From a virus (Duplodnaviria > Heunggongvirae > Uroviricota > Caudoviricetes), in IMG/VR virus record IMGVR_UViG_2579778916_000005: a DNA stretch of 8,299 bases; one strand, written 5' to 3'. Position numbers and translations under genes: made by a program. Below the pieces are notes generated by a model. It saw only the letters and a list, made by a program, of their open reading frames with translations, was not told the DNA's origin and did no database searches. Below, one piece after another: positions 5,531 to 6,465 of the stretch; the stretch's first letter is position 1; every line of letters begins with the position of its first letter.

Positions 5531-6465
5531 TCAGCTGATACTGATGCCTGCGGTGGCTTTCTTCATCACCACAACCAGCAAATCGCTGATACTTGCTGTG
5601 GGATACCAGTCATTTACCAGCCATGCTGACACCGAAAACTCCAGCGTCATGTGGCCGTGACCAGCTGGCATATCAATAACACCACTGTAAATCAGCGTAT
5701 TATCCAGCGCGGTACGGTTATAAATTTCAGCACCATTTTTCTTCACTATCAGGCGGCATGAGGAGTAAATATCAGTATGCTCTCTCTCATGTTTAGCACC
5801 GCTGAATGCCACCGCCGGAATAACAATCTGCCGGTCAAACGGCTGATCGTCATAAATCCTGACGGTAATGGTCCCTGATGGCCACCGCTCCGGTGCCCGG
5901 GAGTCCCGCGGGAAAGCCTTACCCACTGTTTTGACAATATCGCCTTCAATCTGGTTGGCTGACAGTTTCCCTTTAATCTGACAGTTCTCATTTATCGTAA
6001 CGTTGTTGAGCGTCCCGGAGTTCGCATTCACACTGCCACTGATATCTGCATTTTTAGCGGTCAGCTTTCCGTCCGGTGTCAGGGAAAATGCAGGAGGATT
6101 ACCGCCGCTGGTAATGGTGGGAGCCGTCAGATATTTCAGGAACACTTCATTCATGAATATCTGATCACCCTGACCAACAAACATCGGTTTTGTGTTGCCA
6201 TTTGCAGGATTAATCATCGCAATCCTGTCTGCCGCCAGCAGCACCTGACTCTGCATTCCTGCTGGCGTATTCTCAATACCGGCACCGATACCCGCGATAT
6301 AAAGGCGTCCGTCCTGCATCTGCTGCAGCTTCACAGCCCACATGCTGTTCAGGTTATTATTTGTATCAACCTGAACCTTCTGTATCTGCTGGATCGCTGC
6401 ACTCTGATCTTCCAGTTTCTTATTGACGGTCTGTGTGATTTCATTGCTGACATCCGTAATGGACG
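5531..6465 (-). pseudogene. J: Orphan 3' fragment (last ~311 codons) of a second tail-tip host-specificity gene J, lacking its 5' ~75%
   Basis: From 6465 downward the minus-strand frame reads [68 protein letters not shown]..., nearly identical to the J 3' end at 7394..8299 and recognisable as the lambda J C-terminal region, ending [14 protein letters not shown] at 5531. The ORF-track protein (5531..6529) begins with 21 codons ([21 protein letters not shown]) that are stf 5' sequence read in another frame, so there is no native J start. Confidence 0.8.

Follow-up and report, generated by a model that had tools for sequence, protein, structure and literature searches.

Why should one prophage carry the 3′ end of its receptor-binding gene twice, in two different versions? 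The question is raised by the stretch of DNA analysed here (8,299 nucleotides; hereafter the window), which belongs to a prophage at the ydfJ (Qin) site of Escherichia coli, with tail genes upstream and ydfJ/ydfI downstream. A reading made from the letters alone (the sequence-only reading) had taken the window to hold two alternative receptor specificities, one on an intact copy of gene J and one on an orphan fragment, bracketed by conserved flanks that would allow cassette exchange.

Two receptor-binding domains in a partial tandem duplication

ORF calling and Pfam searches placed all genes of the window on the minus strand, in the order J(B) 3′ part, lomB, a stub of stf, the orphan ′J(A), lomA, stf, tfa and 0.8 kb of AT-rich DNA (Table 1). 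DNA alignment, in agreement with a repeat search, revealed two direct copies of the segment "J 3′ end, lom, stf 5′ end" lying 1860–1881 nt apart on that strand, with unit B spanning 8299..6466 and unit A 6418..4606; the downstream end of unit A is formed by the first 194 nt of the full-length stf. Identity between the units is 88–98% in the flank, drops to 38–75% per 60-nt block across 7879..7394 versus 5998..5531, and recovers to 88–100% over lom and the initial 194 nt of stf. The upstream flank shared by the repeats is about 470 nt long (93% identity, longest exact run 71 nt) and the downstream flank about 930 nt (92% identity, longest exact run 76 nt).

Table 1 Features of the window, listed in the direction of transcription.
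Feature	Position	Strand	Evidence or remark
J copy B, 3′ part (tail tip / central fibre protein)	7394..8299	-	ORF and translation; stop 7394-7396; runs past the window end
RBD allele B, phage 434 type, 158 codons after NNVTIN	7397..7870	-	alignment; PF12421 at residues 165-300
lom copy B, Ail/Lom outer-membrane beta-barrel, 199 aa	6724..7323	-	PF06316, E = 1e-122
Terminator-like hairpin 3′ of lom B	6676..6697	-	sequence
stf′ stub, B type, first 194 nt (65 codons) of the side-tail-fibre gene	6466..6659	-	PF08400 positions 1-66 of 134
Recombination junction, GGA	6466..6468	-	common to stf nt 192-194 and J nt 2543-2545
Orphan ′J copy A, from J nt 2543 (~codon 848 of ~1160) to stop 5531-5533	5531..6468	-	alignment
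RBD allele A, PhiR55_1 (probably also gpJ 1A2) type, 152 codons after NNVTIN	5534..5989	-	PF12421 at residues 202-332
Terminator-like hairpin 3′ of J copy A	5493..5512	-	sequence
lom copy A	4864..5463	-	PF06316, E = 1e-125; 100% identical to D6 prophage
Full-length stf, side tail fibre, 1132 aa	1401..4799	-	PF08400, PF21446, PF07484
tfa, tail fibre assembly gene, 193 aa	820..1401	-	PF02413; tfaQ in the D6 and Ec1117 annotation

At the protein level the two J fragments are 67% identical overall (BLASTP, E = 5e-139). When they are split at the shared ...NNVTIN, the 143 residues preceding the receptor-binding domain (RBD) are 97% identical and the RBDs themselves, 153 and 159 aa long from the shared N, are 41% identical; the RBD nucleotides differ at about 38%, indels included. 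Full J genes in the matching prophages measure 3498 nt and 3480 nt. These comparisons confirm that near-identical J copies end in divergent C-terminal parts, as had been noticed from the sequence, and the motifs said to be shared (FDRQI, VIDMP.G.G..TLEF and KKA..GISI) are all present in the BLASTP alignment. The coordinates of the two divergent stretches needed correction to the bounds given in Table 1, and the difference of six codons, right in size, had been credited to the wrong copy: the longer one is 7394..7870, not 5531..5990.

A second, smaller divergent patch lies within lom (7142-7093 versus 5282-5226), the two products being 89% identical. It reads AGDKNRQLTRY in one copy and ANAEDEQKTHY in the other, possibly a surface loop, and the rest of lom is about 90–100% identical. 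The stem-loop and T-tail that follow lom B are identical in sequence to those that follow lom A at 4816-4837. Elsewhere in the window, stf is colinear with the stf genes of the prophages in E. coli D6 and Ec1117, and the greatest difference from both falls in its central part (3200-4400), which has 62% GC and is rich in Ala/Ser/Thr repeats; the long ORFs in other frames or on the opposite strand there (263, 309 and 335 aa) appear to be by-products of composition. Positions 1-800, between tfa and ydfJ, are AT-rich (30–35% GC) and 100% identical across many E. coli Qin-site prophages, and adjoin a 65-aa hypothetical gene just beyond the window.

Three lines of evidence agree that the divergent parts are homologous RBDs of the type found at the C-terminus of lambda gpJ, as had been supposed. 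First, copy A matches PF09327 (Phage_Tail_Tip; 110.9 bits) and then PF12421 (Ig_GpJ_C; 130.1 bits), and copy B matches the same two families in the same order (109.8 and 92.1 bits), all four scores exceeding the Pfam gathering cut-offs of 22 for PF09327 and 26.2 for PF12421. Second, both copies align end to end with the solved lambda gpJ structures 8xcj/8iyk (E = 9e-99 and 8e-98 for copy A, query 12-310; E = 7e-88 and 6e-87 for copy B, which aligns to lambda gpJ residues 839-1131). Third, Foldseek searches of the PDB with AF2 models of copies A and B returned for both the same top four structures, 9wca, 9wcb, 8xck and 8xcj (E 1e-12 to 4e-15, TM about 0.6), among them gpJ bound to LamB (8XCJ) and A8 gpJ with OmpC (9WCB). 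The models are of moderate confidence (pLDDT 69 and 67) and were built from 4–5 near-identical alignment rows, and we used them for fold assignment and a rough comparison of strands and loops; on this basis the copies are 52% identical at strand positions and 32% identical at loop positions, with indels mostly in loops.

The point at which the copies begin to diverge is the equivalent of lambda residue ~980, a region in which the beta-prism fibre joins the Ig-like RBD, whose loops enter LamB (PMC11101478). Contact of a gpJ RBD with its outer-membrane receptor is established for lambda and LamB (8XCJ, PMC11101478) and, according to the title of structure 9WCB, involves OmpC for A8 gpJ. By homology, we infer that RBDs A and B likewise bind an outer-membrane receptor.

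Relatives of the two alleles and their probable receptors

Both RBD alleles are common and already known, and close relatives of each have been characterised: of the 243 phage records with an RBD match, 74 carry allele B and 55 allele A at 90% identity or more. RBD B is 100% identical to those of mEp332 and phiSTEC1575-Stx2k and 96% identical to that of phage 434 over 158 aligned columns, and phage 434 is cited as targeting OmpC (PMC12502783). RBD A is 96.7% identical to that of PhiR55_1 J, and 63% identical both to that of phage 21, whose native receptor is LamB (PMC11336670), and to that of phi330, which uses OmpC. A literature search for receptor data on PhiR55_1 and mEp332 found none.

The closest characterised relative of RBD A appears to be the engineered gpJ "1A2". 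The supplement that describes it gives DNA damaged by optical character recognition, which we stitched across reading frames for comparison. All readable segments match the A class, and 125 of 139 readable positions are identical under an automatic projection of this damaged text; set against the RBD A of the window, the same damaged sequence gives about 9 substitutions over the 152 residues, or ~94% identity. The two also differ at the DNA level. 1A2 uses OmpC to deliver DNA, and does so efficiently when the variant is that of EDL933 but not when it is that of MG1655 (PMC11338833), and the 9 substitutions could alter which OmpC variants RBD A accepts.

Through their closest characterised relatives (434 for B, probably gpJ 1A2 for A), both alleles thus point to OmpC. 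Two distinct RBD alleles are present; since both of these relatives use OmpC, the alleles probably differ in the range of OmpC variants that they accept rather than as LamB, OmpC or FhuA binders.

We note that the RBD of A8 gpJ, solved with EDL933 OmpC (PDB 9WCA/9WCB), is almost the same as its counterpart in phi330, an OmpC phage, and that this A8/phi330 RBD is 80% identical to the RBD of the LamB-using phage 21. Few substitutions can therefore change the receptor in the phage 21/phi330 clade.

The modularity of the gpJ RBD is already established from two directions. Comparative analysis led to the conclusion that lambda J residues 960-1132 circulate as an independent specificity module (Maddamsetti et al. 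2018, PMC6646904), and in engineering work the grafting of natural C-termini onto lambda gpJ at residue 964 switched its receptor (Brödel et al. 2024, PMC11338833). The same is apparent in the sequences compared here. Lambda and 434 are 96% identical upstream of the RBD and 36% identical within it, whereas copy B and 434 are 67% identical upstream (over the 143 residues before RBD B, which are 96% identical to phage 21) and 96% identical within. Upstream and RBD parts thus assort independently among lambda, 434, 21, phi330 and copies A and B.

The junction and how it may have arisen

The ORF of the orphan was found on one contig only, scaffold KK736383.1 of E. coli BIDMC 74, where it is annotated as KDG22621.1, a 'hypothetical protein'. 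On one side of the junction, window positions 4401-6468 are 100% identical to the Qin-site prophage of E. coli D6, the identity ending exactly at 6468/6469, and orphan ′J copy A is 100% identical to D6 J nt 2543-3021. On the other side, positions 6469-8299 are 100% identical to the J-lom-stf of prophages in E. coli AH01 and 13 other listed genomes; J copy B is 100% identical to the J of the AH01 prfC-site prophage, and the stf′ stub to AH01 stf nt 1-194, with homology to stf stopping at 6466. The join thus connects stf nt 194 to J nt 2542/2543, with different reading frames on its two sides and a 3-nt overlap (GGA), and microhomology of this length is calculated to arise by chance in about 5% of random joins. 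A 181-nt probe across the junction found no site covering at least 80% of its length in 5,426 complete E. coli genomes, and there were no exact matches to the junction in GTDB representatives, IMG/VR or JGI metagenomes.

Relative to the Ec1117 prophage, the scaffold is 99.97% identical before a scaffold gap and 99.2% identical after the junction, with the extra block in between. Ec1117 is accordingly a better backbone than E. coli D6, which we rejected as the recipient parent because its genes K and I and the 5′ end of its J are divergent, and the idea of a left crossover in gene K was dropped with it. AH01 was likewise rejected as the donor, since its B block is 100% identical and the sequence upstream is not. 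In E. coli AH01 (NZ_CP055251.1; about 558 kb and about 2,121 kb), APEC O2-211 and 13KWH46, both sides of the junction are present (99.9–100%) in separate prophages of a single strain, so that co-resident donors and recipients do exist in nature.

We consider it likely that the window is a recombination scar in a lambda-like ydfJ-site prophage, left by a one-off illegitimate join between two lambdoid phages and holding RBD A as a silent orphan. The recipient would have been a prophage nearly identical to that of Ec1117, carrying a J with RBD allele A, into which DNA arrived from a second lambdoid phage that contributed a J with the 434-type RBD B, together with lom and the beginning of stf. On the right-hand side the join would have been illegitimate, fusing donor stf nt 194 to recipient J nt 2542/2543 via GGA. 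The left-hand join would lie within J nt 268-2592, a stretch concealed by the gap, and was presumably produced by ordinary homologous crossing-over, given the ~96% identity between the two J genes over this stretch. A virion, if made, would carry RBD B.

The copy called an intact J in the sequence-only reading runs off the window. An 89-aa J N-terminus follows gene I, and is followed by a gap of 2,412 Ns (L003 5818-8229) and then by the 3′ part of J(B); the gap lies inside J(B), immediately beyond window position 8299, so that the window boundary is an assembly boundary and the 5′ part of J(B) is hidden along with the left crossover. The size of the gap was rejected as proof of a full-length J(B), 2,412 nt being comparable both to the ~2,325 nt of a full-length J and to the 2,275 nt of a single-copy locus.

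The evidence for the junction comes from one short-read draft assembly (BIDMC 74), and its occurrence in that assembly only raises the alternative that it is an artefact. Here, one J(A)-lom-stf would lie at ydfJ and one J(B)-lom-stf in a separate prophage, and the 1.83-kb B block would have been misjoined before J(A) nt 2543 by the assembler or by a chimeric library molecule. That the window begins one base past the 2,412-N gap fits such an error, as does the fact that AH01 and APEC O2-211 hold both segment types at separate loci. J genes are, moreover, notorious breakpoints, most of 120 listed relatives being 'partial' as for genes cut at contig ends, and artefacts of this kind do occur in this gene region. 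One of them is the apparent J-lom-′J-lom tandem of L057 (IMGVR_UViG_2671180353_000009), which we rejected as a duplication: its joins, at 4953 and 7319, are single Ns and reflect the scaffolder's placement. In L057 a fragment of an IS21-like transposase precedes stf.

The junction in the window, however, is continuous sequence free of Ns. Its two sides share only 3 nt and carry distinguishing SNPs within 10–20 nt on both sides, so that a k-mer graph would need reads containing the junction in order to make the join. Nor is either side a repeat boundary, since the A and B types differ at stf nt 180, 182, 213 and 221 and at J nt 2533, 2553 and 2574; in their flanks the copies share no exact run longer than 76 nt. 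The join runs from a B-type stf into an A-type J, which shows A-specific SNPs 10 and 31 nt beyond it; self-circularisation of a single fragment would not yield this. The gene order and orientation are exactly those expected of unequal exchange between homologous clusters and improbable for a random chimera. We therefore regard an assembly artefact as unlikely.

If the junction is real, the prophage has been caught as an intermediate in which a new RBD module was gained through one illegitimate join while the old module still lies next to it, a stage that is usually inferred only from finished mosaics. The locus would then bear on the debate over whether phage mosaics form by illegitimate or by homeologous recombination, and would provide a natural substrate for measuring how often the resolution of direct repeats alters host range.

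Fate of the orphan domain and comparison with known systems

The flanks had been described as of a kind that allows cassette exchange, and they are indeed long and similar enough for recombination. Lambda and Rac recombine at about 2e-6 across 703 bp that are 88% identical and contain no perfect run longer than 49 bp (PMC3945230); since the flank identity and the exact runs in the window (71 and 76 nt) exceed these values, deletion between its repeats appears plausible. RecA or a phage Red-type recombinase could delete one repeat unit. A crossover in the upstream flank would leave a J bearing RBD A, and a crossover in lom or stf would restore a single copy bearing RBD B. The part of the claim that did not hold concerns the cassette: the orphan, found in one assembly only, is a one-off, out-of-frame, promoterless remnant and not a cassette system. 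Because the repeats are direct, one-way deletion would be the main outcome, and we infer that any exchange would amount to the one-way resolution of an accident, with no programmed or reversible switch.

A maintained stand-by cassette, in which the orphan RBD is kept because recombination lets some progeny switch OmpC-variant specificity in the manner of silent pilS or vls cassettes, would account for a promoterless, 5′-truncated copy whose upstream flank (~470 nt, 93%) and downstream flank (~930 nt, 92%) recur in the presumed expressed copy. It would also accord with the RBD being an independent module in nature (PMC6646904) and with the altered receptor use that follows natural RBD swaps at lambda gpJ residue 964 (PMC11338833). 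We nevertheless consider it extremely improbable, as the junction is present in one assembly among thousands of genomes and shows no sign of selection or maintenance, direct repeats lead mainly to irreversible deletion, a recombinase and an inverted repeat are both missing, and the only other tandem among 80 related IMG/VR loci is the scaffolding artefact in L057. The more specific proposal that, on induction, Red/RecA recombination in the ~470-nt repeats turns a measurable fraction of the progeny from 434-type to 1A2-type OmpC specificity, and that selection retains such tandems, is in our view very unlikely; if it were true, one lysogen would release a phage population attacking hosts with differing OmpC variants.

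Several features bear on whether RBD A could be produced from its present position. Copy A begins at J nt 2543 (~codon 848), behind the stf stub, and lacks the hub and FNIII domains of J, and so is not a full-length J. It is out of frame with stf′, in which a chimeric 72-aa ORF begins that stops at 6441-6443 and has no match on record in a protein look-up, and the 332-aa ORF that spans it (5531-6529) begins at a fortuitous ATG inside stf′. We found no promoter-like site on the minus strand of the window, and neither the ATG at 6529 nor that at 6343 is preceded by a Shine-Dalgarno-like motif. As a truncated, out-of-frame copy with neither promoter nor ribosome-binding site, the RBD A orphan is very probably silent.

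Late transcription in lambdoid phages reads through terminators, so that the orphan region is probably transcribed. This transcription, the openness of the 332-aa ORF and the fact that residues 713-1132 of lambda gpJ, a similar fragment, form a stable trimer that binds the receptor in vitro (PMC11101478) would favour separate expression of the orphan as a protein of helical shaft, beta-prism and RBD that mixes into tail tips or acts as a soluble OmpC-binding decoy or exclusion factor; we give this very little credence, given the ATGs without Shine-Dalgarno-like sequence, a stop of stf′ that precedes the next in-frame ATG by 98 nt, and the loss of the hub and FNIII domains required for joining the tail tip.

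How, then, does the arrangement compare with systems already known? The Mu G, P1 C and e14 P segments (Gin/Cin/Pin) and the diversity-generating retroelements (DGRs) resemble the window in placing alternative receptor-binding C-termini in one phage genome. The Gin/Cin/Pin systems, however, need a site-specific (serine) invertase and inverted repeats. The window has direct repeats, contains no inverted repeats of at least 25 nt, and has no resolvase or invertase gene within it or in the 10-kb flanks of L003 as judged by Pfam and annotation; related prophages do carry a resolvase/invertase after tfa. DGRs need a reverse transcriptase and a template repeat, and their changes are adenine-biased and free of indels, whereas the RBDs of the window differ by indels and there is no reverse transcriptase gene in the window or within 10 kb. 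With silent cassettes of the pilE/pilS kind the window shares the architecture of a promoterless, truncated copy, but no other occurrence of its junction turned up in the 5,426 complete E. coli genomes or in the three further collections searched.

A closer likeness is to the 5′-truncated J remnants of defective lambdoid prophages. In P0066 and P0053, as in the window, orphan J C-termini produced by illegitimate joins stand directly before lom-stf-tfa, and ynaA of the K-12 Rac prophage is another 5′-truncated J remnant in a defective lambdoid prophage. Remnants with the same RBD allele as copy A occur in other prophages and are common deletion products. Two examples with allele A are L094 7001-8374 (Logan SRR12183925) and L090 7001-8521 (GCA_014104805.1), of which one is an in-frame fusion of a tail-tube protein (PF16461) to the J C-terminus and the other a 506-aa J C-terminus lying about 1.4 kb downstream of Nu1 in a defective prophage. 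After each remnant come lom-stf-tfa and a Pin-like resolvase. A further J fragment, P0016 (378 aa, on one 2.9-kb contig), has an internal tandem duplication of ~24 residues in its beta-prism part. Remnants of the P0066/P0053 type are deletion products that replace J, whereas the remnant in the window adjoins the 3′ end of another J in a 1.86-kb heterologous tandem.

The last comparison is with the exchange of gpJ modules itself. The divergence in the window (~980) falls inside the specificity region of lambda gpJ (960-1132), just past the engineered fusion point at 964; in contrast to the known module swaps, a single prophage retains both alleles next to each other, one of the two as a truncated orphan. 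We read the 1.86-kb partial duplication as the scar of ordinary recombination; it reveals no new system, gene family, mechanism or receptor. Taken together, and with the caveat attached to the assembly, the arrangement is best seen as an example of a process already known, caught once at an intermediate stage of module exchange and not as its finished product.
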